Source: Okeania sp. (GTDB taxonomy: Bacteria; Cyanobacteriota; Cyanobacteriia; Cyanobacteriales; Microcoleaceae). Taken from it: a stretch of 32,000 nucleotides of DNA. The stretch lies in assembly GCF_035285525.1 (NCBI RefSeq), contig NZ_JAYKGW010000182.1, positions 1 to 32,000 on the forward strand. The letters are read 5' to 3'. A program made the translations under genes and the position numbers. Positions 13,215 to 32,000 of the stretch are shown piece by piece; positions within the stretch are counted from its first letter, which is position 1, and each line of letters starts with the position of its first letter. Under the pieces are notes generated by a model. That model saw only the letters and a program-made list of their open reading frames with translations, searched no databases and was not told where the DNA came from.

Positions 13215-13913
13215 TTAATGACAGTATTTTCCATCCACAGCATTATCATGATCTTCTCCAGTTCGCATTCCCCCTATCAGAGTAGAAATAATCACACATC
13301 TTTTAGGTTTATCTTGATTTTGGGGTTTAATGGCTATACGTCCTTGTGCTTGAATGCTAGTTTGGGTACATTGATCCGTAGGATTGTAAACTGGACAACC
13401 CTTGTAGTTAAAAAGAGCGCGATAGATAGGGTCTGTTTTGTTGGTAGTAACTTTATTAGTGTCAGGTTTAACTATTCGTAGCGTAGTTTCATATTTGTCC
13501 TTGTCATTTTTCTCGTTGTCGTCTATCTCAATACCAGGTTCCAAATATTCCCAAGTTGAAGTTGGCACATCGTTGGGGACTGTCGTTGCTTTATGTACTG
13601 CCCACTTAATAACAGGTTGACCTTCTGCATTGGTGGTTTCTTGGAAACTTGCTTGCCAAGCGGTTTTATCTCTCGTAGCATTGCGTTTAGCTTTCAACAT
13701 AGCTTGATATATTCTATCATTGGAGGTGCGGGTGCGTTGTCTATTAATAAAAGCATTCCAACCAGGGGCAGCGATCGCTGCCAAAATACCAATAATGAGA
13801 ACAACAAATATTAATTCTAACAGACTATATCCTGTTTCTGGTTCTTTCAGTGATTTTTCTGATAGATTTTTAATAAGAGTTGATTTGACAAATCGCAATG
13901 TTTTTCCGTTCAT
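13215..13913 (-). CDS. Pseudopilin (prepilin-type N-terminal cleavage/methylation domain), paralogue of HpsD; fifth gene of the hps secretion module
   Basis: Prepilin motif ETG|YSLLELIFVVLIIGILAAIAAPGWNAFINRQRTRT. The C-terminal KRCVIISTLIGGMRTGED is shared with the 14362..14931 product. ATG at 13913 with AGGGTG upstream is preferred over the GTG at 13919 used by the ORF track. Confidence 0.85.
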   Translation of the reverse strand: MNGKTLRFVKSTLIKNLSEKSLKEPETGYSLLELIFVVLIIGILAAIAAPGWNAFINRQRTRTSNDRIYQAMLKAKRNATRDKTAWQASFQETTNAEGQPVIKWAVHKATTVPNDVPTSTWEYLEPGIEIDDNEKNDKDKYETTLRIVKPDTNKVTTNKTDPIYRALFNYKGCPVYNPTDQCTQTSIQAQGRIAIKPQNQDKPKRCVIISTLIGGMRTGEDHDNAVDGKYCH

Positions 13914-14029
13914 TTTCACCCTGATATCCTGTTATTTAACATTAAAGTATTTTACTGATTAATAATTTAATGTCAAACATAGAACCGGGTTATAAAATAT
14001 ATCTTTATAAATCTATACTATACTTAAGT

Positions 14030-14165
14030 ATGCAAGTATGCAATTAGATTTGATAAAATAATTATGCAAGTATGGAACTGGAATTAATAAAATAATTATG
14101 CAAGTATGCAATTAGATTTGATAGAATAATTATGCAAGTATGCAATCAAATTTAATAAAACAGGG
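14030..14165. repeat. Four tandem copies of a 34-bp unit (ATGCAAGTATGCAATTAGATTTGATAAAATAATT) upstream of the distal pseudopilin gene
   Basis: Units lie at 14030-14063, 14064-14097, 14098-14131 and 14132-14165. Units 1 and 3 differ by 1 nt; units 2 and 4 diverge in their 3' halves. Every unit keeps the ATGCAAGTATG head. Confidence 0.9.
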
Positions 14166-14179
14166 TGATATTTTTGAAT

Positions 14180-14224
14180 AAAAAAATTGCCCTGTCGTTA
14201 ACCTAGAATAAGTTTGACAGGGCA
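14180..14224 (-). terminator. Rho-independent terminator downstream of hpsD
   Basis: Minus strand has TGCCCTGTC, an 18-nt loop, then GACAGGGCA, followed by ATTTTTTTATT. Confidence 0.65.
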
Positions 14225-14272
14225 GTTATTTTGTGGTAAGTAGAGCAGCGATTTTCATTTGAATAAACCAAA

Positions 14273-14328
14273 GTAGGGACGTATCGCTGCGCGACATGTA
14301 ACGCATTTTTGTTATGCAACGTCCCTAC
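14273..14328. repeat. Hairpin repeat GTAGGGACGT...ACGTCCCTAC (MITE-like)
   Basis: 10-bp perfect terminal inverted repeat. The internal CGCTGCGCGACATGTAACGC is shared, inverted, with 15031-15050 inside the neighbouring MITE. Confidence 0.6.
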
Positions 14329-14361
14329 AGAGTTATCGCTTTTTTTCGTATGTAAATTAAA

Positions 14362-14931
14362 TTATGGGCAATTAGTATCTTCTGCTGTTCTCATCCCACC
14401 AAGTAAGGTTTCCACAATTACACATCGTTTAAATCCATTATTTGCTGTAGAAACTGTAACAGCAAAAGGTAAGTTATCTTCATTATCTAACGCACCAAGA
14501 TAATTAAAAGAGATACTTGTAACATCTTGATAAGCGGTACAATTATTATCAGCATCTTTAGTTTGACATTCTTTGACAACTAATTTAACCATTTCTGCTT
14601 TGATTTCACCATTAGCATTTAGCTTTTCTTGGGGAAGGTCTCCTATTTTCACCTCTGGAGGGTCTTTAGTAGAAGTAGGAGTGAACGTAACAATTACATC
14701 CTCCTTTTTCGACTTAGCTTGACTTTGTGCTTTTCTTAAAGCTTGAAATACTGCATCATTAACCGTACGAGTGCGTTGTCTATTAATAAAAGCATTCCAA
14801 CCAGGAGCAGCGATCGCGCTCAAGATACCGATTATCAGAACTACTACTACTAATTCTACTATAGAAAAACCAACAGTAGATGTCTTTGAGCGACTGCGTA
14901 GTAATATTTTTAATAAATTCAAAGGTTTCAT
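14362..14931 (-). CDS. hpsD: Hormogonium-polysaccharide secretion pseudopilin HpsD-like
   Basis: 189 aa. Prepilin motif TVG|FSIVELVVVVLIIGILSAIAAPGWNAFINRQRTRT. Third pseudopilin after the giant HpsA-like gene, with C-terminal KRCVIVETLLGGMRTAED. Confidence 0.75.
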   Translation of the reverse strand: MKPLNLLKILLRSRSKTSTVGFSIVELVVVVLIIGILSAIAAPGWNAFINRQRTRTVNDAVFQALRKAQSQAKSKKEDVIVTFTPTSTKDPPEVKIGDLPQEKLNANGEIKAEMVKLVVKECQTKDADNNCTAYQDVTSISFNYLGALDNEDNLPFAVTVSTANNGFKRCVIVETLLGGMRTAEDTNCP

Positions 14932-14967
14932 ATTAGTTAATTTTTCTTACAAATTGTTTGATACTCA

Positions 14968-15120
14968 GGACTGACGCGAAGGCATTATATAGAGTCTTGG
15001 TGCGTTGTGCTTTGTACGCTATTACATGTCGCGTAGCGTTTCGGCGCTTGAGCCGACATATAAAGCGGAGCTTTGCAGAACACAAAACACACCCTACCAA
15101 TAGCATTTATGCGTAAGTCC
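14968..15120. mobile_element. MITE-like element of the GGACTTACGCA family (copy B, long form, inverted relative to copies A and C)
   Basis: GGACTGACGCGAAGGCATTATATAGAGTCTTGGTGCGTT...CACCCTACCAATAGCATTTATGCGTAAGTCC. Its ends match the reverse complement of 17025-17110, and it has about 60 bp of extra internal sequence. Confidence 0.65.
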
Positions 15121-15266: not shown

Positions 15267-16235
15267 TTATTCTGATGTTCCAAAGCCACTACGCGCTCCC
15301 ACTTGAGCAGTTGCTTTTGGGCAATAGGTAGTATTCTTATCACTACAGTCAGCATTGTTTGCTTGCATACGACGTAAGGCATCCCCTCGAATTGTAATTT
15401 TAGCTAAATTGTTTTTGGTACTCACTGAGTCTAGAGTAAAGCCTTCTATGTAATTAACTAACACCAATACATCTTTAGTGTAGGTTTCATTTTCTTTTGT
15501 CCAGCTTTCGGGATCATTATTATATTTGCTATAGCCTGCATCTCGCATAAATTTTTTCTTTTCAGTAGTATTACATATAGTATCATCCCTACCATTAGTA
15601 CCACAAACATAATTATTATTTTGAGTCTCTGTTACCCCATCCTGTATTTGAAACCTACCAATACGCTTGGCGCAATTACCAGTTCCAGGTTGACACCATG
15701 TAGTATTATTATCATCTATCAAATAATAGGCAACTAATGACTGAACAAAGGTATCATTACAGTTTATTGGCTCAGTTGTATCTGTACAAATACTACCCGA
15801 CGGAGCTAGTGCATCTTCAACAAATTCTCGCTTCCAAAATACTAGAATAGGCTCTTTTTCTCCACCAGCATCTTCTGAGGGTGGATGTGGGAGTTGAGCG
15901 ATGAAATTATCAATGGTTGTTTTTTCATCTTCTGTTTTGCCTTCCTTATTCAAGTCATAAATATAAAACGCTTGACTCATATCCTGAACAATATAATCAA
16001 CTGCTGCTTGTAACTCTTGTTGACTGTTCGTCTTTGCCTGTTCCTTTATATCCCTGTCTGTGATATCCACAACAAAAGTCAAAATTGGGACAATGATTAT
16101 CGTTGCCATGATTGTAGCAACTAATAGTTCTACCATGGTGAAGCCACTTATAGAGCTGCTTAACTTTTGCAACTTGCGATTTAACGGGGTTTTTATTAGT
16201 AATCTCAGTAAATTGTCGATCATAAATAAATACAT
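15267..16235 (-). CDS. hpsC: Hormogonium-polysaccharide secretion pseudopilin HpsC-like
   Basis: 322 aa. Prepilin motif ISG|FTMVELLVATIMATIII and a Cys-rich extracellular part. Second pseudopilin downstream of HpsA. An alternative start exists at 16223. Confidence 0.75.
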   Translation of the reverse strand: MYLFMIDNLLRLLIKTPLNRKLQKLSSSISGFTMVELLVATIMATIIIVPILTFVVDITDRDIKEQAKTNSQQELQAAVDYIVQDMSQAFYIYDLNKEGKTEDEKTTIDNFIAQLPHPPSEDAGGEKEPILVFWKREFVEDALAPSGSICTDTTEPINCNDTFVQSLVAYYLIDDNNTTWCQPGTGNCAKRIGRFQIQDGVTETQNNNYVCGTNGRDDTICNTTEKKKFMRDAGYSKYNNDPESWTKENETYTKDVLVLVNYIEGFTLDSVSTKNNLAKITIRGDALRRMQANNADCSDKNTTYCPKATAQVGARSGFGTSE

Positions 16236-16277
16236 TCCTAATTGTTCAAAATTTATCCCTAATGTAAGTTCAAATTG

Positions 16278-17000
16278 CTATTGGCAATCTCCTCCTCCTA
16301 AGCGATCGCAAATTTTTTGAAATGAACCATTGAGTGATTTTGGAGCTATTTCTACTTTAGTTACAAATAGAGGTCTTTCTACATCACCAGACCTAGTTGC
16401 TAACCCAGCGTTATTGACAGTAAATGGTACATCTTGATTTGATAATTTTACAGAGCTGGCAAAAGCTTTGGCTCTAAAAACTCTTACCTTTAAAATATAA
16501 CCAAGTTTTGACTTAGTAGCTGAATCAGCAGTTAGTATTTGGTTCTTGTAATCACTATCTGGCAAATCGAAATAAATTATTGCTCCATGAACCATCATAT
16601 CTGTTAGACTCTCAGGAGTACATTCACCATCACCATCACCATCTACACAATAAAATTGACCTAGCACTTGGGATATTAGTGCTGTTGGGCAATATTGTAG
16701 ATTATTGCCATCAGTCTGGGAACATTCTGTCAAAGCAGTAGCTGAAATTTGTTGGTCGCTGACAAAGCCTTCTGGTGCAGAGAGTTGCCCTTTTCTAACA
16801 GCATCAATATAACTCCTCGCTGCCTGTGTTGCCAGTTCTACTCGTCTTGCCTGAACGCGAGTCCCCACTGACACAGCAATAATAGGAGCAACTGCACTCA
16901 TAATCGCAGCTACTATTACCATTGCTATCAACCCCTCAATCATGGTATAGCCTGCTTCTGGGGAAAAGAAGTTATTTTTTAGTCTTTGTTTAAGTTTCAT
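16278..17000 (-). CDS. hpsB: Hormogonium-polysaccharide secretion pseudopilin HpsB-like
   Basis: 240 aa. Prepilin motif EAG|YTMIEGLIAMVIVAAIMSAVAPII. First pseudopilin downstream of HpsA. Contains a CVDGDGDGEC loop. Confidence 0.75.
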   Translation of the reverse strand: MKLKQRLKNNFFSPEAGYTMIEGLIAMVIVAAIMSAVAPIIAVSVGTRVQARRVELATQAARSYIDAVRKGQLSAPEGFVSDQQISATALTECSQTDGNNLQYCPTALISQVLGQFYCVDGDGDGECTPESLTDMMVHGAIIYFDLPDSDYKNQILTADSATKSKLGYILKVRVFRAKAFASSVKLSNQDVPFTVNNAGLATRSGDVERPLFVTKVEIAPKSLNGSFQKICDRLGGGDCQ

Positions 17001-17193: not shown

Positions 17194-20100
17194 CTACTTT
17201 GGAACTACTTTGGAAGATAACAACGCTTTAACCCAGTCATCGTCCAAACTTACTTCCCGATAATATCTGTCTGGTTCACCACTTGAGTCTTCACCACTCT
17301 GCTGTTGAGCGAAGTAGTCAGGAGCTTGGGAAAGCAAACCCACATCATATCCCCAGTTACGATCTGGTGGTAGGAAGTATCCTATTCGAGCGCCTGCATT
17401 GTTAACAGTATAGTTGTTAAGTTTATATGAACCTCTATATCCAAAACGACTATTTGCACCTTGTTGACCGTTTATACCATTAGGTGGAAGTTGTGGAAAA
17501 GGTGCGGTAGCATAGGCACTACGATTTAATTGAATAAAACTACCAGTGATGTTAGTATCAGAATTATTACTATTACCTGTTGCCCAGTTTTCTAGGAAAC
17601 GAGGCAAGTTTTGTAAACCACCATTGGCTTCTGGAGGACGAGGAGGTACGTCACCAGACCCTACTACTAAGTTAAATGTTGTACTTCCAGAAGCTCTGGT
17701 TAGCCATTTTGATGTACTGTTTAGCGTTTTATTACTCAGATTTAGGAATGTGGGTTGTGTCGCTTCAGGAGTTGTTGTTGGTAAATAATTTTGCAGAACA
17801 GGTACTAACAGAGGTTGTTGCACTGTTCCTACATTTGCGCTGGTCTCCACTAATGCACGCCAATAAAACAAAGGGTAGGTGTTACCATAATCTGCGTCCG
17901 CAGTTGGGTCGGTAATATTGCTAGAAGTTCTAAACCAAAGAGCGTTAGAAGTTGTTGGAGGTACACTAGGATAGGTATACAATGCAACTTTTTTAGAAGA
18001 ATCTATTCCCAGTGGAATCGCTACACCATTTGCATCTAATACTAAGTTATTAGTATTTCGTTGAAATGCTATACGACGTGGATAACGACGGTCATCAGGG
18101 TTTAGTGCAGGGCGAGCGGTAGTACCTGCAATTAATTTATTGACACTTTGGTTTACTACTTGACTTGCTATTTCTTTACCAGTACCATCACTTAGACCTA
18201 CAAACCAATCAACAGGTTGACAAGAGGATACAGGCAACTTACGACACATCTCCATTACATACTCTGGAAATTCTCCCCGTCGCTGAACAGGTGTTACATA
18301 GTTATTAAAATAAGAACTGTTGACAGCATCACCAGTATTAGTGGAGTAGTAACTATCTGTCATTGGTGTAACTGAATTTGGAGTAGGAGTAGCACCGTCA
18401 GTTGGGTTTCCCCCAGCGTCATAGGTTACTTCATTTACTGTCGGAGGTGTACCTGTTGCGGTAAAGTAAGAACCACTACTTAAACCATTAGTAACAAAAT
18501 TATTACCATAGAAACCGTTTAACATCCGAGCGCCAGCAACAGTAATATTAGCTTCAGGCAAAGCTGCGTTTGTAATAACACCATCTCCATCCAAGTCAAA
18601 ACCTAATACTCCCTCATCAATATCTGTCTGGTCGCCGTCACCATTTAGGTCTGTAGCTGCTACTGTTTCATCTAAACCTAGACTTGCATCTGAAGTATCA
18701 TTGGTATTAAAGTCATATCCTGTTTGTGTGCTATTAAATACAACCTTAAAATTACCAGCATTATTTCTGAGATCAAAATCTCCTTCATTACGAAAACCAG
18801 TCCGAAAACCTGAATCTAAGTCATTAGGATTGTCAGACAACAAGGTAATGGCATCTGCCAGTACATTTGCCGGACGCCAACTATCCCCTGTGGTACAACC
18901 AGAAATCCTGGGGTCTCCTTTGCGACAAGCAAAATTCTGATTTATCTGAGCTGCGGTACGAGTGTAAAAATTGCTCCAGTTAGTTGTTAAGTCTTGAGTA
19001 AACTCTTGTTGAGTGTGAAGATTAAACTCACCGTGGATATAGACTGGTAAATTGCTTACCAAAGTCAAACCTTTTTCCTTCACAATATCTTCTACTTTAC
19101 TAACAGCAGTATCATTTTGACCATCATCATTTTGATCATTCCTTGCTAAACGTTGACCATTAATCAACATGATACCATTAGGTCGTCGAGTCGGATCTAA
19201 TTTATAATCTGTAGCACTAAGAGCAGCACTAATATCCTCATCTATAGCATTATTATCTGAATTAGGTGTGCGATCGCTTCTATCTGGTAAAGCATCATCA
19301 CGGCTAACATAAATAATACCACTATTTGGCAGCAAATATTCTGGTGACGGTCCTGTAGTTATCGAAGCATTGAACGGAATCTCCTGCTCTCTCATTTGAT
19401 TCAAATCTAGTTGAGTCAAACGAATTTCTAGAGGTTGCCGTTCCTCTAAGAACAAATCATACTTTGATGTTAAATTTGCCGGAGCTGCCAAAGTGCTAGC
19501 GAGGGTAAAAGTTTCATCCACAGTAGTTGTCGGATCGTCAGCATCCATCGCCTTTACTTGTCTAGCATCCAATAGAGTTACTTCTTTGATAACACCATGA
19601 TTGATTGTTACTCCAGTTGAGGGAGTAGTAGTAGGAGCAAAAGTACCTCCCGCCAATATGTCTAGAGAGCAAAGAGTAGAATCTATAGCTGCCTGTTCTT
19701 CTAGGGTAAGATCGCCATTGTCAGATAATCTTTTTAAAGCTTTTCGCAAAGGTCTATTAGCAAATCTGCCATCTGGAAAAACCATATTCGCTTGTTCTGC
19801 GAGTGCAGTTGGAGTTGTATTAGAAAATAAACCTGTAGCCGCAGTAAAAGTTGCTGTCGTTGGTCTAGCTGTCTTGGGTGGTGGGTAAACTACACCATTA
19901 TTAGATTTACCATTTGCTGTTGCACCAAATCCTACATCTGGTAATTCTGTACCTGTTGGTGCGAAGTTTGCTGCTGTTATGCTGCTCGTTGGATCGTAGT
20001 AACTACTAATACAAGCAATAGGTTTTTGGTCATTGTCTACAGGATCGCCATTAGGATTGATGGGGTCTTGTGCGTAGTGATATAAAACTGTTGCCCGCAT

Positions 20101-22188
20101 CTGGAGATCACCCTTCGTAGGTGGAGCATTTGGACTAATGAAAGCTGAAATATCTTGCCATCCGCCCCCAACAAGATTGGCATTGTCATAGACTAGACCA
20201 TTAGCACCAGGTGACATTGGCATTGTATCCGGCCAGACAACTGTATATTGTTCAGTTACTGTGGTAGTTGCCGGGTCATCATATAGGGACTCATCCACTG
20301 TTGTCGTTCCTGGATCATCTATTCTTGGAGGTGGCAGAAAAGAATCAGTACGGGAATAAATTCCTGCTCCTGTAACTATACGCAAACCACCAATACCATC
20401 TAAACTCGCTTCTGGTACTTGCCCTGCTTTCCTTTCCCAGAAACCATTCCGAGCTGTAGAACCTACAGCAGGTAGTTCTGTTACACGAGGTATACGAGTA
20501 CGAACAGGAGCATCAATGAGGTTTCCACTGTCATCAACCCATTTTCCTCCTGTTGTTTGTTCGGAACTAACAAACTCCGAACCATTCCACCATGTAGCAG
20601 GTAGATTATTTCCTACAAGTATACGTTCTCCCAAAAATTGTTCTGGGCGATCTTCTTCATCATTTGGTACTCTAGCTTGTAATTGATTTACATCTAAGGT
20701 TATTTTAGTTTCAGTATCTGTGGGCAGTATCCATTTGTCTGGTGGTCGAAGTGTATCCCCACTACCTTCTGGAGTTTCTGTAGGGTTATAATCAACTTTA
20801 GCACTTACTTCTCCAAAAGGCACTTTTCTAGTTCGATCGCGGAAGTAAGTGCCTAGTTCTTCACGACGTATTTCTGTTCTCCTCTCTGCATCATCCGTTC
20901 CTTCGTCTTCCATCCTTTGATTTACCTTTTCTATTACTGCTTCTTCAGGATCGGTTGTTTCCTGTTTTTTCATCTGATCTTCAACCATAACACTAATGCG
21001 CTTTTCGTATGCGTTATTGTTATATATTGTATCGTATGCAGTTTCATTATTAACAGACTGATTTGTAGTGCTAATCACTTGATCTGTTTTGACATCACTC
21101 CCATTACCCTGAAATAAATCCACTGCCACATTATTTCTCTTACTGCTACTTGACATTCCATTCACAACATTTCCCCCAACAATTATCTTGCTATTTTCTG
21201 CTTGATAGAAGCAAGACTCATCACTACTTACCTGGTAGGAGCGTAAAACGTTGTTATAGGGAGAAACTACTAAATTACTATTTGTTAACATCCTCCCATT
21301 AATGCGAAAGGCAGGACCGGGAGATATTTCTAGATCGTCCTCATATACTACAGCGTTGTTAGTTAGAGGCAGTCTTTTCCAGTCTTCTTGATATTCCAGA
21401 GCTGTAATACCTGGATTTACTGCTTTTCCATTCATTGGAACAGTTATAATATAAACAAAAAAACTTTTGGTTAATTTACCATCTAATTTGTACCAACCAG
21501 AATCTCCTACTAAGCTAGCACTACTACCTAAAGCTCCTTCACAACCTTGATTTTGCAGCACTCCCAAAGGTGACATTGGTGGAGTTCTGGCTTCTAGAGG
21601 TCTTCTTTTTCTCTTAAATTCAGTTCCATTACGTGGGGTACGGAAAAAGATACCATAAATTGTGTAGCTATCATTAGTTTCATCGTTGTCTGTATCAACA
21701 GGAAATCTCCATGCAGTTGTAATTTTTTCATCATCCTCTATAGTATTATCCTCATCTAAGTCGTAACTTACCTCTAATTTTTCTTCATCCCCAAATTCAT
21801 ATCTATTACTTGCTAAAGTTGAGTTAAGAACATCATCTGATGGTGTTTCTCTTGGTAAAATAGGGTCTTCTCTCAATAAATACTGAATTTTAGCTCTAGC
21901 TCGATCTAGAGCAGGAGTAGCAGCACTGAGAGCTTGCTGACTTACCCTCACGTTTCGAGCTTGTTCTGCTCGATCAAAAGAACGAAGCAATATTGCTGTT
22001 GTCAGTAACAATACTACTATCATTACCATTGTGGCTGTCGGCAATACAAGTCCAGCAATAGAAGCATTAGCAATATTTTTTCTGCTCAGAGCGATCGCTC
22101 TTACTAATGCCTTTTTTAGTAGTCTTAATTGTTTGCCTATGGTTCTGACTATGTTGTTAATGTTTTTTAATATACTATGGTAATACAT
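17194..22188 (-). CDS. hpsA: Giant hormogonium-polysaccharide protein HpsA-like (membrane-anchored, 1664 aa)
   Basis: Single N-terminal hydrophobic anchor GLVLPTATMVMIVVLLLTTAILL without a G|FTLxE cleavage motif. The rest is a long Thr/Asn/Asp/Pro-rich extracytoplasmic region. It is immediately followed by three pseudopilin genes, the arrangement reported for hpsA-D in Nostoc punctiforme. Confidence 0.8.
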   Translation of the reverse strand: MYYHSILKNINNIVRTIGKQLRLLKKALVRAIALSRKNIANASIAGLVLPTATMVMIVVLLLTTAILLRSFDRAEQARNVRVSQQALSAATPALDRARAKIQYLLREDPILPRETPSDDVLNSTLASNRYEFGDEEKLEVSYDLDEDNTIEDDEKITTAWRFPVDTDNDETNDSYTIYGIFFRTPRNGTEFKRKRRPLEARTPPMSPLGVLQNQGCEGALGSSASLVGDSGWYKLDGKLTKSFFVYIITVPMNGKAVNPGITALEYQEDWKRLPLTNNAVVYEDDLEISPGPAFRINGRMLTNSNLVVSPYNNVLRSYQVSSDESCFYQAENSKIIVGGNVVNGMSSSSKRNNVAVDLFQGNGSDVKTDQVISTTNQSVNNETAYDTIYNNNAYEKRISVMVEDQMKKQETTDPEEAVIEKVNQRMEDEGTDDAERRTEIRREELGTYFRDRTRKVPFGEVSAKVDYNPTETPEGSGDTLRPPDKWILPTDTETKITLDVNQLQARVPNDEEDRPEQFLGERILVGNNLPATWWNGSEFVSSEQTTGGKWVDDSGNLIDAPVRTRIPRVTELPAVGSTARNGFWERKAGQVPEASLDGIGGLRIVTGAGIYSRTDSFLPPPRIDDPGTTTVDESLYDDPATTTVTEQYTVVWPDTMPMSPGANGLVYDNANLVGGGWQDISAFISPNAPPTKGDLQMRATVLYHYAQDPINPNGDPVDNDQKPIACISSYYDPTSSITAANFAPTGTELPDVGFGATANGKSNNGVVYPPPKTARPTTATFTAATGLFSNTTPTALAEQANMVFPDGRFANRPLRKALKRLSDNGDLTLEEQAAIDSTLCSLDILAGGTFAPTTTPSTGVTINHGVIKEVTLLDARQVKAMDADDPTTTVDETFTLASTLAAPANLTSKYDLFLEERQPLEIRLTQLDLNQMREQEIPFNASITTGPSPEYLLPNSGIIYVSRDDALPDRSDRTPNSDNNAIDEDISAALSATDYKLDPTRRPNGIMLINGQRLARNDQNDDGQNDTAVSKVEDIVKEKGLTLVSNLPVYIHGEFNLHTQQEFTQDLTTNWSNFYTRTAAQINQNFACRKGDPRISGCTTGDSWRPANVLADAITLLSDNPNDLDSGFRTGFRNEGDFDLRNNAGNFKVVFNSTQTGYDFNTNDTSDASLGLDETVAATDLNGDGDQTDIDEGVLGFDLDGDGVITNAALPEANITVAGARMLNGFYGNNFVTNGLSSGSYFTATGTPPTVNEVTYDAGGNPTDGATPTPNSVTPMTDSYYSTNTGDAVNSSYFNNYVTPVQRRGEFPEYVMEMCRKLPVSSCQPVDWFVGLSDGTGKEIASQVVNQSVNKLIAGTTARPALNPDDRRYPRRIAFQRNTNNLVLDANGVAIPLGIDSSKKVALYTYPSVPPTTSNALWFRTSSNITDPTADADYGNTYPLFYWRALVETSANVGTVQQPLLVPVLQNYLPTTTPEATQPTFLNLSNKTLNSTSKWLTRASGSTTFNLVVGSGDVPPRPPEANGGLQNLPRFLENWATGNSNNSDTNITGSFIQLNRSAYATAPFPQLPPNGINGQQGANSRFGYRGSYKLNNYTVNNAGARIGYFLPPDRNWGYDVGLLSQAPDYFAQQQSGEDSSGEPDRYYREVSLDDDWVKALLSSKVVPK

Positions 22189-23829: not shown

Positions 23830-24275
23830 AATTAACAATAACAATAAACTAATCTAATAATATAGTAATCCTAAATAGGTGGTGACAAATTAAAAGGTAA
23901 ATACAAAAAGCTGAAACTCTTATTTATAGCAGTTAAGCGTTCCTTGTTCCCGAAAAGCTTTTGAATTTTGTACACGAATCAAATAGGATTGCTATATTAT
24001 TTATTCAACCAAACTTGTACAAAATACTACCAACTATGCCATATATACGAACGAGTTCTTAATCGTACTTTCTTTGTGAAATTAAAGTTGAGCCATAACT
24101 CGTTTTAAGTTAAGCAAATTAGATAAACTTTCCTGATACTAAGGGGTTAACCTTTACTGTTATTGCGTTATTGTAATTGGTACACTAATGGTAGTTGTCT
24201 ACTCTACCTGATCGATAATGTTTCAGTACATTTGAAAGAGTCATGCTATTAATCAGCTTAAAAATTATCAGCGAT

Positions 24276-25229
24276 CTATTTTTTGTTTTTGGTAAATAGA
24301 TAAAAACTATAAAAAGGACTGAGGAAGCTACCCCAAAAGAATTCTAATTCAAAAGCTGGAATTAAATCTTTTCTAACTCGACCACGGTACTTAATCAAAT
24401 GCAGAATTATCCGGCGCGAACTTCCCAATAATGTTCTTACAAATAGCATGGGTTTTTCCCAGTTTTTAGCATTAATTGTTAGTAGGAAATAAGTTGGTAA
24501 ACCACAAGCACGACTTAAGGATAATAAATAATCTTTTTCTAATCTATGAGCAGGTATTTTATGATAACTTTCCATCTCAGGGTTGTACCAAATTTCCCAA
24601 CCATTCTTGTAGATATATAATAATAATTCATAATCCTCTGAAGCCACCATTGAACTACCAACTCTACCACTTAAAGTCAAGCGATCAGGAACAGATTCAT
24701 TCCAAGCTTTTTTACTAATTACTAATGAAGCTGTGGTTGGTAAATTCAACCTATTTGGTTCAAAAAGAAGGGGTTTAGAACCATGTTCTCTAATAGACAA
24801 AAAAGGGTATACTTCTTTATATTCTGGGGGTAATTCGACTTCAAAATCACCATGAATTTGACCACCTATTGCTCCAGCTTGAGGATGAGTTTGACAAAAA
24901 GCATAAGCAGCAGATATCCAATTTTCTGTGGGCAAAACATCATCATCTAGAAAACCAATATAATTGCTTTTTGCTTCTTTAATAGCTTTCAAACGAGCAA
25001 ATGCTGCTCCTTGTTGATGTTCAAAAAAGTATTTTATAGAGACAAATTCCGAAAAGCGAGATTGATAGTCTTGAACTATTTCCGAAGTATTATCGCTACT
25101 ATTATTATCAACTACAATTACTTCCCAAGAAATATTTTCTGTATTAATTTGCGCTCGCAACTTCTCTAAAACTAAGGGCAATTTATTTGCCCCATTATAT
25201 GTTGGTATAGCAACGGTAAAATCTAACAT
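24276..25229 (-). CDS. hpsE: Family-2 glycosyltransferase, HpsE-like
   Basis: 317 aa. GT2 motifs are present: MLDFTVAIPTYNGANKLPLVLEKL, VIVVDNNSSDNT, and the DxD motif in IGFLDDDVLP. The N-terminal pattern matches my recollection of HpsE-annotated proteins. Confidence 0.6.
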   Translation of the reverse strand: MLDFTVAIPTYNGANKLPLVLEKLRAQINTENISWEVIVVDNNSSDNTSEIVQDYQSRFSEFVSIKYFFEHQQGAAFARLKAIKEAKSNYIGFLDDDVLPTENWISAAYAFCQTHPQAGAIGGQIHGDFEVELPPEYKEVYPFLSIREHGSKPLLFEPNRLNLPTTASLVISKKAWNESVPDRLTLSGRVGSSMVASEDYELLLYIYKNGWEIWYNPEMESYHKIPAHRLEKDYLLSLSRACGLPTYFLLTINAKNWEKPMLFVRTLLGSSRRIILHLIKYRGRVRKDLIPAFELEFFWGSFLSPFYSFYLFTKNKK

Positions 25230-25628: not shown

Positions 25629-26567
25629 TTAATTCTGGTAATAACCCAACTTTTCTAGCAGTTCACCAGCTTCTAAGTATATTTGTTGAAGTTGTTCTTC
25701 TGATAATTCCCTTTTCCAATTACCAATAGAATCAGTTCTAGCTTTACTAACAACTGCATGAAACAAATTACGAGATTGAGAACTAGAAATACCTAAGTAA
25801 TTTAACAGGCGATCGCCTTCTTCTATGGGATTATTAACTAAAGATTCATATCTCAGTTCGTGATATTTTTCTGGCCGAAAATTGGAGAAAGCACCCAACG
25901 CTGTTTCTGTATGCCGTCGCCAAGCCCAGATACAACGGTGAATATCTGTAGTCTCTTGAAATTCTTGACGTCTGTCTACCTCTACCCAAAATCTCGGATA
26001 AGGGCCATAGGGATATCCTCCAGACTCACGTTGACTTGATTTGGCCTGAGCTGCCTGTAACCAAGGTTTTTTGCTATGGGAAAGAGCTGCATCTCTACCA
26101 TCTCTAATAATATGGATAAATTGAGCTTCAGGAAATGTAGTGGCCAAAAAATCTATGAGAAAACAATTACGAGGGGTTTTCTCAGCAAAACGAAGGTCGG
26201 CATCTAGGTGGAGTCGCATTAACCAACTATAAACGGAACCATAAAACCATTTACCCTTTGTTATTCCCCAATTTTTTTCATAGATATAGCGAGCAGCAGC
26301 TTTTGTGGCCACAGGTTCAAAATGATAAGAAATTTCTGGCAGGGAACCTAAACAAGTCCCCAGGAAAGTTGTGCCAGAGCGGGGAGACCCAATAATAAAA
26401 ATTGGTCGTCGTAAATTTGGTATTAGCAGAGAGAGCAAGCGACTGGAAGAAATAGGACGTTTTCGAGATTGATATTTTTTCCGGTCTTCTTTTGCAGTTT
26501 TTTTAGCCCATTCTAAAATATTTGACCAGTTAATTTCGGTAGTTTTTGGGATATTCTGAAGTTTCAT
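25629..26567 (-). CDS. Sulfotransferase (PAPS-dependent family)
   Basis: 312 aa with IIGSPRSGTTFLGTCL (5'-PSB) and IIRDGRDAALS (3'-PB). Its ATG is 2 nt downstream of the preceding GT4 stop. Confidence 0.85.
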   Translation of the reverse strand: MKLQNIPKTTEINWSNILEWAKKTAKEDRKKYQSRKRPISSSRLLSLLIPNLRRPIFIIGSPRSGTTFLGTCLGSLPEISYHFEPVATKAAARYIYEKNWGITKGKWFYGSVYSWLMRLHLDADLRFAEKTPRNCFLIDFLATTFPEAQFIHIIRDGRDAALSHSKKPWLQAAQAKSSQRESGGYPYGPYPRFWVEVDRRQEFQETTDIHRCIWAWRRHTETALGAFSNFRPEKYHELRYESLVNNPIEEGDRLLNYLGISSSQSRNLFHAVVSKARTDSIGNWKRELSEEQLQQIYLEAGELLEKLGYYQN

Positions 26568-26569
26568 AT

Positions 26570-27766
26570 TTAATGATTTTTCACTACATTTTGATAAACC
26601 TTTAAATGTTGATTAAAAATATTAGAAATAGAAAGTTTTTCACGCAAACTTATTAATAAATCATTAGGTTTTTCTTCTGTTTCTACCATTGATAATTCTT
26701 CTTTGATAGCTTCAGCCAATGCTTCAGCAGTATAAGGTTGGAAAGTTTGAATTGCTCCTGGTTCTATTTTATTATATTCTGCTATTTGAGGTAGATCGGA
26801 AGCTAAAATCGGACGAGCTAAAGATATCCAAGTTGATAAGGAACCAGAGGCTGAAAGAATTTCAAACGGACAGACTGCCAGATGACTTGCCATTAGATAA
26901 GTTTCTAAATCTTTTTCTGACAAATAGCCAGTTACTAATAAACGGTCTGCTACTCCTATTTTTTCTGCTAATTTTAACAGTTCTTGCCAAAAATTCTCTT
27001 GGTTTGGTGCTGGTTCTCCAGCAAATACAACTTTAATATTTTCTGATAATTTTGGCATAGCTTCAATCAGTAATCTATGACCTTTTGACCTAAAAATAAA
27101 CCCTTGCAAAGTAATTACTTTAAATTTTTCTAAACCTAAAATAGAGCGAGCTTCTGGAGGGCTAATACTAATATTTCTTTCCTCAACAAAATGGAAAATA
27201 TTGACTAATTTTCTACTAGAATAAGGAATTAATCTTTGAGATTCTGCCTTCGTACAGGTAATAACTAATTTTACTTTTTTTAATAGCCAACGAATAGTAT
27301 AAATATTTGGAATGTTATGAGAAATGTAGTTATTCCAAAAATTATTAATCGTACTTCTAAGTGATAATTTTTGAAAGTTTGAATATTTTCTTTGTTGATA
27401 ATACTCCCGTTGGAAAGCTTCTAATAAACTGTAGGGAGGATAATTAGCAGGTAAAACATCGTGGATAGTTGCTACAATTGGAGCTTGACAGTTATTAATA
27501 AAAGCTTTAATATTCTGAAATTGCTGCCATTTTTTTCCCCAAGTGTATATATTGAATTGAATATGAACTACATCAGCTTCAGAAAGTTTTTTTGCTGCTT
27601 GACTGAGTAATTTTAAATTGTTCGTTGTATTAGTTGTTAATTCTACATCAGTTTCTAGTATATCTAGATGAGATTGTTTACGAGCGGCACTAGCCAAAAA
27701 ATGACCATATCTAGTTACCCCACTCTTACTTCCAGCTAAACTAATATGTAAATATCCAATTTTCAT
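26570..27766 (-). CDS. GT-B fold glycosyltransferase (GT4/GT1-like)
   Basis: 398 aa. The C-terminal half has VVFAGE..., LLVTGYLSEKDLETYLMASHLAVCPFEILSASGSLSTWISLARPILASD. GAGGAG lies upstream of the ATG. Confidence 0.75.
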   Translation of the reverse strand: MKIGYLHISLAGSKSGVTRYGHFLASAARKQSHLDILETDVELTTNTTNNLKLLSQAAKKLSEADVVHIQFNIYTWGKKWQQFQNIKAFINNCQAPIVATIHDVLPANYPPYSLLEAFQREYYQQRKYSNFQKLSLRSTINNFWNNYISHNIPNIYTIRWLLKKVKLVITCTKAESQRLIPYSSRKLVNIFHFVEERNISISPPEARSILGLEKFKVITLQGFIFRSKGHRLLIEAMPKLSENIKVVFAGEPAPNQENFWQELLKLAEKIGVADRLLVTGYLSEKDLETYLMASHLAVCPFEILSASGSLSTWISLARPILASDLPQIAEYNKIEPGAIQTFQPYTAEALAEAIKEELSMVETEEKPNDLLISLREKLSISNIFNQHLKVYQNVVKNH

Positions 27767-27779: not shown

Positions 27780-28721
27780 TCACTTTTTATTAATTAAAGT
27801 TTTAATCTGCTGCTTAATTTGACTTCTTTTTTGAGAGAGAAAAAGTTTTGATAACCGGAATAGTAATTTGAATAAATTACTATTTAACTTATACCCTATA
27901 CGAATCATATCATTCCAAACTAAAGTTTCAATATCAAGTATCATAGATGCTGATAATTCTGATTGCCAACGATTTATTAATTCTGGATTTAAAGGTTGCT
28001 TGGCATTAGCTTTCCAAGGTTCTCTCTCCACATTAACTGATGATGTGTTTCTTTGGTAAAAATTTAGCATTCTTGGTTCAAATTCAACACCAATAAAGTC
28101 ACATATATTTTGTAGTGTTTTTTCAGATTCTAGGACAAGCTTTTCATAATAAATAGTCAAAACTGATGGTTTAATTTGGATGGGTAAATGATTGATAATG
28201 TTCATATCTTTATGCCAAATTCTAGCATCACCTATGATACTTCCAGTAGACCAATAAACTTTTCGCCAAGAATTTACAACAGCTCTAGGATCGCGGATTA
28301 TATTTATAAATAATGCTGAAGGGAAAAATTTATAAATAGGTTCGATATATCTAAGATGATGAGGGGTTTTTTCTCCTACTATTTGAGCTTTTTTTAATAC
28401 TGCAAATTCTTCTAACAAGAGATTAAATAAACTACCATAGTCTCTGTTTTTTTCCAAAGCTAGTTGACGAAATTTATCTTGGTTAAGCTCCATTTCCGTA
28501 AATTCAGGTAGAGCAATTATATCGGCAATTAACTTATAATAATTTTCGTCTTCATATAAGTTACCATAAACATCCTTTTTTTGCCAAAATAATCGCATAA
28601 AATGGGTTTCAGGAGCGATCGCTATCTGGGAATGGGTGTCTAACATTTCTTGTAGTAGAGTAGTCCCAGAACGAGGACATCCTACCAAAAAAATCCTTGT
28701 TTTAATTTTATGGTGATTCAA
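27780..28721 (-). CDS. Sulfotransferase (PAPS-dependent family), apparently TTG-initiated
   Basis: 313 aa with FLVGCPRSGTTLLQEML (5'-PSB) and IIRDPRAVVNS (3'-PB). The only in-frame start upstream of the PSB loop, after the upstream TAA, is the TTG at 28721. Confidence 0.8.
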   Translation of the reverse strand: MNHHKIKTRIFLVGCPRSGTTLLQEMLDTHSQIAIAPETHFMRLFWQKKDVYGNLYEDENYYKLIADIIALPEFTEMELNQDKFRQLALEKNRDYGSLFNLLLEEFAVLKKAQIVGEKTPHHLRYIEPIYKFFPSALFINIIRDPRAVVNSWRKVYWSTGSIIGDARIWHKDMNIINHLPIQIKPSVLTIYYEKLVLESEKTLQNICDFIGVEFEPRMLNFYQRNTSSVNVEREPWKANAKQPLNPELINRWQSELSASMILDIETLVWNDMIRIGYKLNSNLFKLLFRLSKLFLSQKRSQIKQQIKTLINKK

Positions 28722-28973: not shown

Positions 28974-28997
28974 AAAGATTATAGGAGAAACATATTA

Positions 28998-30236
28998 GTG
29001 ACTATTCCTTCATTTCGGACTTTATTTATAGTTTATCAGTTACCCTATCCACCAATGGGTGGTTCTCCATTACGAAACTGGCAAAATATTAATACGATCA
29101 AAAAATATGGGGAAGTAGGAGTCTTTTCACTTTCTTATAAAAACCATAAATTTAAAACTCTTCCTGGGATTAATTCTTGGCATAATTATAATATGAATTA
29201 TCGAGGGAGCTTTAATCAAAGATTAGCTAAGAAACTATCTAAATTTTTGACTTGGCGATATCCTCTTTTCGATGACGCTTATGGAGAGGTAGGAGCCAAA
29301 AAATTACATGAACTTATGAGAACTTTTCAGCCAGATTTAGCGATAATTTCTCAGCTCACTTGTTATCCATATTTACAGATAGTTAAAAATTATAAATGCA
29401 AAATTATTTTTGATGCCCATGATATTGTTGCAGATGTTTTTCGTCAGAAATCTGGTTTATTAATTGGTGGGAAAAGAAAGCTAATAGAAAAACTGCAATT
29501 AATGGATATTAGCTCCAAAGAAGCTAAGTTAATTCGTACAGTTGACCAAATTTGGGTATGTAGTGAAACAGATAGAAAAATTTTACAAGATTTATATGGA
29601 AAAAACAGACTTTCATATATTGTACCTAATGGCATTAATATTTCTGACTATGCAAATGTGAAAAACGACAATTGCTCTCTTCCCGATCGGTTAAACTATT
29701 ATGAGAAAACGATAATATTTATTGGTTCTTTTGGCTATCAACCTAATATTAATGCTGCTAATTTTCTGATTGATAAAGTTTACCCACGACTGAGAAATAT
29801 TTATCCAGACTGTCAATTATTATTAGTAGGAAAAGACGTACCTAAAGAACTTTTAGAAACTGCCAAAAAGTACCCTAATATTATTTGTACTGGTACTGTT
29901 CCTGATGTTAAACCTTATTTAGCTGCATCTAGTATTGTTGTGACACCTTTGTTTGAAGGTGGTGGTACTCGTCTGAAAATTTTAGAAGCTTTTGCTGCTG
30001 GTAGACCAGTTGTTAGTACCACTAAAGGGGTGGAAGGAATAAATGCTCAAGATGGAAAACATTTATTAATTAGAGATGATGTTGAAGGAATAATTTGGGC
30101 TATCTGTCAACTTTGGTCAGATTTATCTTTGGGAAAAAAATTAACTGCTGCTGCTTATGAACTGGTAAGCTGGGAATACTCCTGGGAAGCAGTGGCAAAA
30201 AAAATTGAACCAGCAGTTAAGGACATTTTTCGATAA
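28998..30236 (+). CDS. Family-4 (GT-B) glycosyltransferase, GTG-initiated
   Basis: 412 aa with the signature FEGGGTRLKILEAFAAGRPVVSTTKGVEGI. AGGAG lies 11 nt upstream of the GTG at 28998. Confidence 0.85.
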   Translation: MTIPSFRTLFIVYQLPYPPMGGSPLRNWQNINTIKKYGEVGVFSLSYKNHKFKTLPGINSWHNYNMNYRGSFNQRLAKKLSKFLTWRYPLFDDAYGEVGAKKLHELMRTFQPDLAIISQLTCYPYLQIVKNYKCKIIFDAHDIVADVFRQKSGLLIGGKRKLIEKLQLMDISSKEAKLIRTVDQIWVCSETDRKILQDLYGKNRLSYIVPNGINISDYANVKNDNCSLPDRLNYYEKTIIFIGSFGYQPNINAANFLIDKVYPRLRNIYPDCQLLLVGKDVPKELLETAKKYPNIICTGTVPDVKPYLAASSIVVTPLFEGGGTRLKILEAFAAGRPVVSTTKGVEGINAQDGKHLLIRDDVEGIIWAICQLWSDLSLGKKLTAAAYELVSWEYSWEAVAKKIEPAVKDIFR

Positions 30237-31323
30237 CTGAGCGGTAAACTTCAACTGTTTCTTGGCCAATTAAATTCCAATCTAGGCGATCGCAAGCTTT
30301 TACAACCAGTCTACTCAACTCATCCAAATCAATTTTGGTACTTTTCTGCATTGTCTTCAGCAAACCTTCTTGATCTTCTGGATCGTACAATAAATCGTTT
30401 GCTTCTCCTACTACTTCTAATAACCCACCTAAACGAGGAGCAATAACTGGTTTTCCAAAAGACATTGCTAAAATCAAACTACCAGAATTTAAAATATTTT
30501 TAAATGGTAAAACTACCACATTTGCTGCACTAAAATATAGATGCAGTTTACTATTATCAACAAACTCTGGGGAAATAATTACTCCCTTTATTTCTGTGGC
30601 TAATTTTTGTAATTTTTGGGCATAACTTTCATCCCAAGGTTTACCAACAATTAACAACATATCACCAGTAAAAATATCTTGATTATCTTGCCAAACCTGC
30701 AATAAATTTTCGATACCTTTATAAGGTTTCAACAATCCTAAATTTAGATATACTTTTCCAGTTTTGGGCAAATTTAACTCTTTTCTAGCTTCTGTTAAAT
30801 CTATTGGTTTATGATAAACATCTCGATAATGACCGTGGGGAATAACTATAGCTTTTGCCGGATTAAATTTATATTCTTTGGCAATTGTTTCTACGGTCAT
30901 TTTATTCAAACAAATTATTCGATCGACCAACTTAACAAACAGTCGTCGCGTCCATAATTCTAAACCTGGAAACTTACTATCGTGACTCAAATAGTTATGC
31001 ACCGTCCATACAAATTTAAAACCAGTTAAACGAGTGATTAAAACATCAAAAAGAAACTTCAAACAGGAGAAAAAATAAAGATATTTATTCTCCCCTGTAA
31101 TATAAAAAGATATCCAGTGAATATGAACTACATCACAATGCTTTTTTCTAGCTACAGCCCCTTTAAATATAGGCAATTTACCTTTGTTATAAAGCCAATG
31201 CTCTACAGATATTCCCTGAATTACTAATGCCTGAGCTAGTAAAAATTGATAAGGATTTAGAGCTTTTTCCAGATGATCATCACTAGGCACCATTAAAACT
31301 CGAAGTTGACTAGATTTATTCAC
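30217..31323 (-). CDS. Family-4 (GT-B) glycosyltransferase
   Basis: 368 aa with VVVLPFKNILNSGSLILAMSFGKPVIAPRLGGLLEVV. Starts at GTG 31323 (or the ATG about 30 nt downstream). Its 3' end overlaps the convergent GT4 gene by 20 bp. Confidence 0.8.
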   Translation of the reverse strand: MNKSSQLRVLMVPSDDHLEKALNPYQFLLAQALVIQGISVEHWLYNKGKLPIFKGAVARKKHCDVVHIHWISFYITGENKYLYFFSCLKFLFDVLITRLTGFKFVWTVHNYLSHDSKFPGLELWTRRLFVKLVDRIICLNKMTVETIAKEYKFNPAKAIVIPHGHYRDVYHKPIDLTEARKELNLPKTGKVYLNLGLLKPYKGIENLLQVWQDNQDIFTGDMLLIVGKPWDESYAQKLQKLATEIKGVIISPEFVDNSKLHLYFSAANVVVLPFKNILNSGSLILAMSFGKPVIAPRLGGLLEVVGEANDLLYDPEDQEGLLKTMQKSTKIDLDELSRLVVKACDRLDWNLIGQETVEVYRSVIEKCP

Positions 31324-31386
31324 AACATTTATATTCCTACTTAATTCCTTTTTTTACTAAAATTAATTTGTTCATTTGTTAAATTT

Positions 31387-32000
31387 TCAATTATTTTTGG
31401 TGGATATGCTCTTAATATAACCTAACAATTTTTTATAAAGTATAGGTGGTAAAAAAATAAATCCCAGGCTTTTAACAAAGATTGCAAAAATCAACCTGAA
31501 ATCCGATTTTAAATAAGGATCATTGAGAGCATAAAGCAAAATAAATTTCATCACTATCAAGCCTTTTTTTGGTGTTGGTTGAGAGTCAATTGTTTTGCAA
31601 GTAAGATATTTATAAATATTTGCCAAGCTCTGTTTTTTTAGGTGTTGAAGAGATGCTGGGGCGCGTTCAAAAGCACTTTCTATTACCTTCAAACATTCTT
31701 GCCCTTGTCTAAGAGCATTAGAAGAAATTGAATTAGTAGAAAATCTGTACAAAATCTGAGGTTTTTCTACTGCCACAAAATGATATTTTTTTCCCAGTCT
31801 TAAATACAGTTCCCAATCTTGACCTCCCTTTAACGACTCATCAAAACCACCTATGTCGTTGATAGCTTCTCTTTTAATTAGAGGATTAGAACCATTTTCT
31901 AAAAAATTCCTCACCAATAGCTCAGAATAAACATCGCCATTAAAAACAACACGCCCACCATGCTTGATCAAATTTCCAGACTTATCAATATAATCAGTCC
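31387..32000 (-). CDS. Family-2 glycosyltransferase, C-terminal part; the 5' end lies outside the window
   Basis: The frame stays open to the right window edge (..TDYIDKSGNLIKHGGRVVFNGD..). It carries the GT2 C-terminal signature GGFDESLKGGQDWELYLRL, and the tail is hydrophobic. Confidence 0.75.
   Translation of the reverse strand, partial: TDYIDKSGNLIKHGGRVVFNGDVYSELLVRNFLENGSNPLIKREAINDIGGFDESLKGGQDWELYLRLGKKYHFVAVEKPQILYRFSTNSISSNALRQGQECLKVIESAFERAPASLQHLKKQSLANIYKYLTCKTIDSQPTPKKGLIVMKFILLYALNDPYLKSDFRLIFAIFVKSLGFIFLPPILYKKLLGYIKSISTKNN

Follow-up and report, generated by a model that had tools for sequence, protein, structure and literature searches.

In Nostoc punctiforme, the hps locus comprises hpsA-K (Risser and Meeks, 2013, as summarised in PMC4284469 and PMC12288463). 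The hps genes pair Wzx/Wzy-type synthesis with minor pilins, and production of the hormogonium polysaccharide (HPS) requires PilB and PilQ of the type IV pilus (PMC12288463). HPS acts as a surface for pilus attachment and not as a propellant, and the choice between PilQ and a Wza-type protein as its exit was left undecided (PMC12288463). The hps cluster of Phormidium sp. KS holds a conserved sulfotransferase (ST), which was described in 2014 as "highly conserved" but "apparently unrelated" (PMC4284469). Moreover, STs inside a cluster for extracellular polysaccharide (EPS) make sulfated EPS in Synechocystis (PMC8205485). In this study, positions 1 to 32,000 of contig NZ_JAYKGW010000182.1 of the cyanobacterium Okeania sp. 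(assembly GCF_035285525.1; the whole 32-kb stretch is called the window below) were analyzed, in which an hps gene set stands next to three ST genes. Judged from family membership and gene order, the region is the known hps (hormogonium/motility polysaccharide) locus in its non-Nostocales layout. Taken as a whole, this locus is likely to combine a minor-pilin set with a cassette-built region for a sulfated slime glycan.

Family scans took in 20 open reading frames (ORFs) of the window, nearly all of those longer than 100 amino acid residues. Four Hps proteins, all encoded on the minus strand, scored above the curated NCBIfam cut-offs. HpsA (17194–22188, 1664 residues) matched EPS_HpsA (NF038301) at 1550.3 bits over residues 7–1660 (cut-off 400), HpsB (16278–17000; also Pfam N_methyl) matched EPS_HpsB at 168.4 bits (cut-off 150), HpsC (15267–16235) matched EPS_HpsC at 254.3 bits (cut-off 200) and a glycosyltransferase (GT) of family GT2 (24276–25229) matched EPS_HpsE at 452.1 bits (cut-off 300). 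No NCBIfam model matched HpsD (14362–14931) or HpsH (13215–13919) of the window, nor those of Nostoc; their orthology was assigned by position and best matches across 80 hpsA loci, and the positional orthologue of HpsH is the pilin after hpsG in Nostocales loci and after hpsD elsewhere. The locus features found in the window were HpsA, HpsB and HpsC downstream of it, HpsD and HpsH, one HpsE/F GT2 and one HpsG-like GT2. A previous reading of the same DNA from its letters alone (hereafter the sequence-only reading) had likened the giant protein and the pseudopilins to the hpsA-D arrangement. The profile searches against the NCBIfam Hps and Pfam Sulfotransfer models that it had proposed, which placed HpsA, HpsB, HpsC, HpsE and the three STs above cut-off, agree with that likeness, with HpsD assigned by position and HpsH in addition.

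HpsA of the window was 100% identical to an NCBI protein of Okeania sp. that is already named HpsA, and ST3 and HpsD were likewise each 100% identical to proteins encoded, together with that HpsA, on one 61.7-kb NCBI contig of Okeania sp. Beyond Okeania, the closest relatives were from Dapis and Trichodesmium, with identities of 60–66%. The host is a marine cyanobacterium of Oscillatoriales type and not a member of the Nostocales. Okeania is not known to form hormogonia.

The name HpsE needs a comment. The EPS_HpsE model scored HpsE of Nostoc at 530 bits and HpsF at 467 bits (L057, 17819–19872), both well above the cut-off, so the model cannot separate the two paralogs. The window GT2 at 24276–25229, the only copy there, is therefore referred to as HpsE/F-family, and automatically assigned HpsE names do not tell HpsE from HpsF. 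A second GT2 (31387–32000, minus strand, Pfam Glyco_tranf_2_2) shares its NCBIfam profile, TuaG-like, with the third GT of the hps loci of Nostoc and Oscillatoria acuminata and is referred to as HpsG-like. It is cut by the window end; a second contig with the same sequence (L081), which reaches ~830 bp past the window end, gave the full gene, which extends to ~32346 and encodes 319 residues.

For synteny, 80 hpsA loci from species-representative genomes were compared with 10-kb flanks, and their ORFs were scored against every window protein. Upstream counts use the loci with at least 7 kb of upstream flank, which are 24 Nostocales-type loci and 28 others. STs were detected with the three window STs as phmmer queries (E ≤ 1e-5), a search that would miss unrelated ST families. 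The order hpsA-B-C was found in 79 of the 80 loci, the exception (L066) ending within hpsA, and the longer order hpsA-B-C-D(-H) was also conserved. The 30 Nostocales-type loci have the order hpsA-B-C-D-[E-F-G]-H, with GTs between pilin genes in 29 of them. In the 50 other loci, the five pilin genes follow one another without an intervening GT (0/50); GTs were found upstream of hpsA in 16 of the 28 such loci with sufficient flank. The position of the GTs upstream of hpsA, which the sequence-only reading had taken to be unusual, is thus the standard layout outside the Nostocales.

ST genes upstream of hpsA showed a similar division. At least one was detected in 19 of the 28 non-Nostocales loci, at least two in 7 and three in none, and none was detected in the 24 Nostocales loci. 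Within this sample of sequences, the linkage of STs to hps is widespread outside the Nostocales and absent inside. The three STs of the window are at the top of the observed range, which is its sole unusual count. The sequence-only reading had pointed to three mutually divergent STs interleaved with the GTs; these are real, divergent and intact, but their linkage to hps is ordinary and only the number is exceptional. It had also proposed a synteny check across Nostocales genomes, which would wrongly speak against the linkage, given that no Nostocales locus had an ST (0/24).

Compared with the hps locus of N. punctiforme, the Okeania locus has the same HpsA, HpsB, HpsC and HpsE-family GT2, HpsD and HpsH correspond by position, and the type IV pilus machinery is encoded elsewhere in both. 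Different from the Nostocales loci, which contain two HpsE/F copies, the Okeania locus has contiguous pilin genes, GTs upstream and one HpsE/F copy, to which three STs and three GT4s are added. In the Oscillatoriales Phormidium sp. KS, O. acuminata PCC 6304, Laspinema and Trichodesmium erythraeum IMS101, GT2 genes and an ST of the ST3 group (45–79% identity) lie upstream of hpsA-B-C-D-H, as in Okeania. However, these loci each contain a single ST within 10 kb and a few other loci contain two, whereas Okeania has three from three groups.

The four small proteins encoded downstream of hpsA all have a class III prepilin leader, G↓[YF][TS][ML][ILV]E (arrows mark the cleavage site), which reads G↓YTMIE in HpsB, G↓FTMVE in HpsC, G↓FSIVE in HpsD and G↓YSLLE in HpsH. 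HpsD and HpsH are paralogs with 36% identity, and homologs of HpsD carry the source names FimT/GspH family. The AlphaFold model of HpsD (predicted local distance difference test, pLDDT, of 84) had as its top fold match in the PDB FimU of Pseudomonas aeruginosa (4ipu; TM-score 0.72, probability 1.0), followed by EpsH of Vibrio cholerae (2qv8). Profile searches with HpsD and HpsH alignments against PDB sequences gave matches limited to the shared N-terminal pilin helix and did not indicate a minor-pilin class. In addition, HpsD weakly matched the NCBIfam prepilin peptidase-dependent protein model PRK10506, HpsB weakly matched PilV (TIGR02523; 22.6 bits, cut-off 52, profile positions 2–104 of 139) and HpsC had weak matches to ComGF and to another prepilin peptidase-dependent protein model, PRK10557 (17.9 bits, cut-off 120).

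HpsA has a prepilin-like leader that lacks Glu5, …ASIAG↓LVLPTATMVMIVVLLL…. In an alignment of the N-termini of 30 homologs, the leader RR…AG↓(F/L)VLPT and the hydrophobic helix were kept in all 30 and none had Glu5; G46, L49, P50 and T51 were invariant. The window HpsA (residues 46–49, 22042–22053) has a leucine at position +1 after the predicted cleavage glycine, which is a phenylalanine in 28 of the 29 other homologs. The predicted model of residues 1–1200 (pLDDT 65) has a long helix at residues 51–107 that is followed by beta strands. In a 2026 preprint, the FimT, PilV, PilW and PilX families are described in cyanobacteria and HpsA is classed as a PilX-type minor pilin (PilX_EPS) with an expanded beta-solenoid, located in the tip complex of the type IV pilus. 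The same preprint proposes that this pilin set primes a pilus specialised for EPS-dependent motility, with HpsA as a slime-track adhesin.

HpsA, HpsB, HpsC, HpsD and HpsH are best read as a minor-pilin set. HpsD is FimU/GspH-like in its predicted fold, and HpsH is read as FimU/GspH-like as well. From weak sequence matches and the preprint, HpsB may be PilV-like, HpsC PilW-like and HpsA a giant PilX-like subunit. Similar to the FimU-PilV-PilW-PilX operon and to GspH-I-J-K, the Hps set consists of four to five pilin-like genes without motor genes, would share the peptidase and machine of the cell, includes one FimU/GspH-like fold and has a largest member without Glu5. Different from them, HpsA is about ten times larger than proteobacterial PilX, and no PilY1 was found in the Okeania set. 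Processing and assembly of the five proteins would fall to the general type IV pilus machine of the cell, encoded elsewhere, and the set would probably serve as tip or priming complex in a pilus specialised for movement over slime.

The GspD secretin, GspE ATPase, GspF platform protein and prepilin peptidase were not found among the 20 ORFs scanned in the window. Their absence had been noted in the sequence-only reading as an oddity; the observation stands, but it describes the known state, as would be expected of an Hps system that relies on the type IV pilus machine. The accompanying suggestion that the pseudopilins must use machinery encoded elsewhere agrees with the need for PilB and PilQ in N. 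punctiforme (PMC12288463). The sequence-only reading had further pictured polysaccharide export by a pseudopilus plus a 180-kDa anchored protein. In such a picture, the pseudopilins and HpsA would work as a dedicated piston, similar to a type II secretion system (T2SS), that pushes the polysaccharide through a secretin. This was the original hypothesis for Hps, and the loss of HPS in N. punctiforme after loss of PilB or PilQ counts in its favor, the export route still being left undecided (PMC12288463). However, a Wza-type exporter for HPS was identified later, and conditioned medium complements the HPS defect from outside (PMC12288463). Moreover, HpsD is predicted to fold like the type IV pilus minor pilin FimU, no T2SS-specific component was found among the ORFs scanned, and the preprint puts the set in the pilus tip complex. 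The picture of an anchored protein is also dated, given the prepilin-like leader of HpsA and its assignment to the PilX type. A T2SS-like piston is therefore improbable.

The three STs, ST1 (27780–28721), ST2 (25629–26567) and ST3 (23002–23844), are all encoded on the minus strand and belong to Pfam Sulfotransfer_3, with scores of 127, 96 and 127 bits, respectively (cut-off 27). The identities are 31% between ST1 and ST3, 28% between ST1 and ST2 and 22% between ST2 and ST3, and the divergent ST2 has an N-terminal extension of ~50 residues. The G[CS]PRSGTT loop, EKTP and R-x7-S motifs are invariant in all three, and the motifs for binding 3'-phosphoadenosine-5'-phosphosulfate (PAPS) are thus intact. 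When the translations were read by eye, no N-terminal hydrophobic segment was seen in any of them, for which reason they look cytosolic. In PDB searches, the strongest matches of all three were protein-tyrosine sulfotransferases (TPSTs) and the polyketide sulfotransferase CurM; cytosolic sulfotransferases gave weak matches, for ST1 and ST3 only.

These PDB matches bear on whether one or more of the STs sulfate proteins instead of a glycan, the candidate acceptors being tyrosines of HpsA or of the minor pilins. Among solved structures, protein-tyrosine sulfotransferases 1 and 2 are in the group of best matches of ST1 and ST3 (E 1e-15 to 1e-10), ST3 adjoins hpsA in the clade of Trichodesmium, Dapis and Okeania, and HpsA is rich in acidic stretches flanked by tyrosine. 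However, Sulfotransfer_3 is a broad family in which TPST and CurM are the strongest matches for each of the three STs alike, and the only NCBIfam match of an ST was to a sugar sulfotransferase, NoeE. The genomic context of ST3 was traced as well. Orthologs of ST3 with 476–498 bits lie directly upstream of hpsA in Dapis, T. erythraeum IMS101 and one metagenome-assembled genome (MAG), and counterparts of at least 200 bits were found in 14 loci. The ST3 family had 1260 matches; among the best 120, the named ones were nearly all from non-heterocystous filamentous cyanobacteria, with identities of 45–79%, and one was from a Xenococcaceae MAG. Seen from the ST side, the ST3 ortholog always adjoins GT2 genes, and where it is separated from hpsA it keeps with these genes, which are HpsE-family in 4 of 5 loci and HpsG-like in the fifth; this constancy speaks against a protein acceptor.

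For instance, O. acuminata PCC 6304 and Laspinema have the order clpB, GT2, GT2, GT2, ST, htpG, rpmB, hpsA-B-C-D-H, in which the O. acuminata ST follows the three GT2 genes with a 6-bp gap. The O. acuminata order matches the one published for Phormidium sp. KS in 2014 (PMC4284469). On the metagenome contig with the ST of Oscillatoriaceae M33_DOE_052, the ST comes right after HpsE-family GT2s (458 and 452 bits), with no hpsA within 6–8 kb. In Limnoraphis robusta Tam1, the ST is in a GT2/GT4 block with an HpsE-family GT2 (510 bits) two genes upstream, the adjacent GT2 scoring 139 bits, below the cut-off, and no hpsA was found within 8 kb. In Oscillatoria sp. SIO1A7 (L106), the ST is beside HpsG-like (TuaG-like) GT2s and not HpsE-family ones, and a second ST and htpG are within 8 kb. 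In these sequences, the ST3 group travels with HpsE-type GTs rather than with pilins, and this is the best available argument that ST3 acts on a glycan. Sulfation of HpsA or pilin tyrosines is accordingly regarded as highly improbable. The support for a putative carbohydrate acceptor consists of the context beside GTs and a far sub-threshold match to NoeE.

The surroundings of ST3-type genes in other Oscillatoriales had further recurrent members. In several of them, htpG comes after the ST3-type gene, either at once or a few genes later (L082, 11349–14075; L083; L105, 8972–11417; L104, 11799–13781), rpmB follows htpG in L082, L083 and L105, and clpB is often upstream of the GT2s. These three genes are interleaved with the hps loci of O. 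acuminata and Phormidium sp. KS and absent from the Okeania window. In L104, which is the metagenome contig with the M33_DOE_052 ST, the block is preceded by genes for a PatA-type response regulator and CheW, which the window does not contain. PatA-type response regulators and CheW are gene kinds of the hmp chemotaxis cluster.

Besides ST3 and the HpsE/F-family GT2, the block upstream of hpsA contains a GT4 between ST1 and ST2 (GT4_26570; 26570–27766, minus strand, Pfam Glyco_trans_1_4 and Glycos_transf_1), two further GT4s and the HpsG-like GT2. The GT4 GT4_28998 (28998–30236), which resembles the stp1 type, scored 155 bits with TIGR03087, below its cut-off of 317, and 94.5 bits with Pfam Glyco_trans_1_4; GT4_30217 (30217–31323, minus strand) matched Pfam Glycos_transf_1. 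The sequence-only reading had listed three more GT genes at 28998–32000. They are present, but the first is on the plus strand and the last is the truncated GT2. Apart from these corrections, its ORF coordinates and strands were all reproduced in the ORF list, including the prepilin motifs and the minus-strand run from 28721 to 13215 of ST1, GT4, ST2, GT2, ST3, hpsA and four prepilin genes.

For each gene of this upstream block, at least one other locus carries a counterpart, likewise upstream of hpsA, that scores 200 bits or more. Orthologs of GT4_30217 (594–684 bits) are upstream of hpsA in L016, L039 and L044, and the ortholog of GT4_28998 (445 bits) in the hps locus L016 is inverted there, too. 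L039 also has an ST1 ortholog (544 bits) and an adjoining GT4_26570 ortholog (687 bits), L011 has an ST2 counterpart (258 bits), and counterparts of the HpsG-like GT2 are in L001 and L041, all upstream of hpsA. The ST1-GT4-ST2 cassette is shared only with L039, for ST1 and GT4, and with L011, for ST2. In other loci, the place immediately upstream of hpsA is taken by one of two further ST groups, each ~25% identical to the window STs. The first was found in L002 (1247–2047), L004 (8580–9395), L007 (8662–9432) and L008 (8727–9506), and the second in L011 (914–1783), L032 (7207–8076), L039 (7014–7883) and L048 (8284–9153). One of the further groups has a GGLHRSGT loop, and the other is 74–90% identical within itself. 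Counting ST1–3, at least five ST groups are linked to hps. In the 813-bp gap between ST3 and hpsA of the window, no decayed remnant of the ST types that hold that position in relatives was detected. On sequence comparison, the ST and GT content turns over between relatives, and the hps-linked glycan region behaves like a variable locus that swaps cassettes with other polysaccharide clusters.

Such exchange raises the question of whether the block serves one polysaccharide. Relatives of ST2 (52–66% identity) were found in ST2-ST-GT4-GT4 clusters of metagenome contigs (L085, L088, L095 and L101) with no HpsA, HpsB or HpsC within 10 kb on either side. Because ST2-type cassettes occur away from hps pilins, ST1-GT4-ST2 could serve a second polysaccharide. 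Two neighboring systems would then be present, one with ST3 and the HpsE-family GT2 in the hps glycan pathway, and the other with ST1-GT4-ST2 and the three distal GTs for a separate sulfated polysaccharide, such as a sheath, a capsule or a released EPS. The gene spacing is in line with such a division, as ST1-GT4-ST2 forms a unit of its own with gaps of 13 bp and 2 bp that is 399 bp from the HpsE-family GT2 gene, and many partial ST-containing EPS clusters are scattered in cyanobacterial genomes (Maeda et al., PMC8205485). However, the cassette sits between two hps-type GT2 genes, HpsE/F and HpsG-like. Moreover, orthologs of ST1, GT4_26570, GT4_30217 and GT4_28998 are again found right upstream of hpsA, in L039, L016 and L044, and the other ST groups found immediately upstream of hpsA make the ST/GT variability look like a property of the hps locus. 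The presence of two separate systems is thus rather unlikely, and a single hps-linked glycan region is preferred.

In the preferred reading of one minor-pilin set joined to one sulfated slime glycan, the upstream block would be a variable glycan-synthesis region with one HpsE/F GT2, one HpsG-like GT2, three GT4s and three cytosolic, PAPS-dependent STs. At the inner membrane face, the GT2 and GT4 enzymes would assemble a repeat unit on a lipid carrier, and the STs would sulfate it with PAPS before flipping, as proposed for synechan (PMC8205485). A Wzx/Wzy-type system encoded elsewhere would flip, polymerise and export the repeat unit, which would yield a sulfated slime track that serves gliding and aggregation. 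The three STs suggest that the slime is sulfated. Similar to the Okeania locus, the xss (synechan) cluster of Synechocystis sp. PCC 6803 combines several GTs and more than one divergent ST in one EPS locus with a predicted sulfated heteropolysaccharide (PMC8205485). Different from the Okeania window, in which no polymerase, flippase, exporter or regulator was found and minor-pilin genes are joined to the block, xss has no pilins and comes close to a full cluster that includes Wzx/Wzy, regulatory genes and a chain-length regulator. ST genes are also abundant in marine Trichodesmium (PMC8205485).

Several results weigh against this reading. Wzx, Wzy, a chain-length regulator, an outer-membrane exporter and a priming transferase were not found among the 20 ORFs scanned in the window; the polysaccharide export genes may be elsewhere in the genome. 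The nearest solved relatives of the STs are not sugar STs, the sole NCBIfam match of an ST, to NoeE, is far below cut-off, and ST2-type cassettes also sit in clusters without hps pilin genes within 10 kb. What is known of HPS comes mainly from Nostoc, in whose hps loci no ST was detected (0/24). For the pilin part, a Foldseek search of the PDB with the HpsA model of residues 1–1200 (pLDDT 65) returned nothing below E 0.26 and did not recover a PilX-like fold, and Pfam PilX_N matched 4 of 30 HpsA N-termini, all sub-threshold (E 0.0045 or weaker) and the window protein not among them. Finally, the spacers of 400–800 bp between most genes speak against one transcript.

With regard to the last point, ST1-GT4-ST2 is the only tightly packed part, and most other intergenic gaps are ~190–810 bp; a single operon is therefore unlikely. 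Scans of the window for promoter and terminator consensus sequences gave counts that were not above those of shuffled controls and are thus uninformative on operon structure. An Rfam scan of the window found no RNA family. A lower GC content of the ST/GT block was considered as a sign of horizontal transfer and dropped, as the GC content is just as low in the remaining window, with hpsA as the one exception on the higher side.

Both sulfated EPS and EPS clusters with ST genes have been described in cyanobacteria before (PMC8205485), and an ST was noted in the hps clusters of Oscillatoriales in 2014 (PMC4284469) and never followed up; no paper in the literature searched links hps to sulfation. 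What is added here is the linkage of hps to STs outside the Nostocales, the tie of the ST3 group to HpsE-type GTs and the turnover of STs and GTs. The Okeania locus is an incremental extension of the known Hps system, with an unusually large ST complement and a GT4 mosaic, and not a new kind of system. For the slime of gliding filamentous cyanobacteria, chemical and genetic work comes almost entirely from Nostoc, in which hps loci are without an ST, and the ST-bearing hps loci include those of the bloom or mat formers Trichodesmium, Dapis, Okeania, Lyngbya and Planktothrix. In such ST-bearing, non-heterocystous relatives, the slime used for motility is predicted to be sulfated, to a degree that varies by strain. 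If so, slime sulfation would matter for how colonies and aggregates form, for metal binding and for what becomes of the exopolymers in seawater. The STs might also sulfate HpsA or the minor pilins, and the turnover of STs and GTs could write a strain-specific sulfation code in the slime, which the HpsA tip would read for recognition of own or kin trails; we regard this idea as quite improbable.

Other features of the window were also recorded. The 442-bp spacer between hpsD and hpsH contains four tandem copies of a 34-bp unit (14025–14160; 84% matches). Immediately next to the hps pilin genes, the opposite strand (10892–12881) carries a gene for a DNA methyltransferase (Pfam N6_N4_Mtase, 438 residues), followed after 1 bp by a gene for a 223-residue protein that had no family match; the two may be a restriction-modification pair. 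The gene at 6956–10606 encodes a 1216-residue protein with many TPR repeats and a C-terminal domain of glycosyltransferase family 41 (O-GlcNAc-transferase type). Some Microcoleus loci gave weak matches to this protein downstream of their hps pilins, which probably reflect no more than shared TPR repeats. At the window start (14–673), a protein with an FGE-sulfatase (formylglycine-generating enzyme-like) domain is encoded (162 bits). This domain is common in cyanobacteria, and the protein indicates neither sulfatase maturation nor a connection with the STs. Two copies of a 64-bp unit with 96% identity lie beside rpiA (5144–5271), and an array built on ACACTCCCC lies upstream of ndhB (3902–3962). 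Large intergenic spacers with repeats were seen throughout the window, which fits the low coding density of genomes of the Trichodesmium group.

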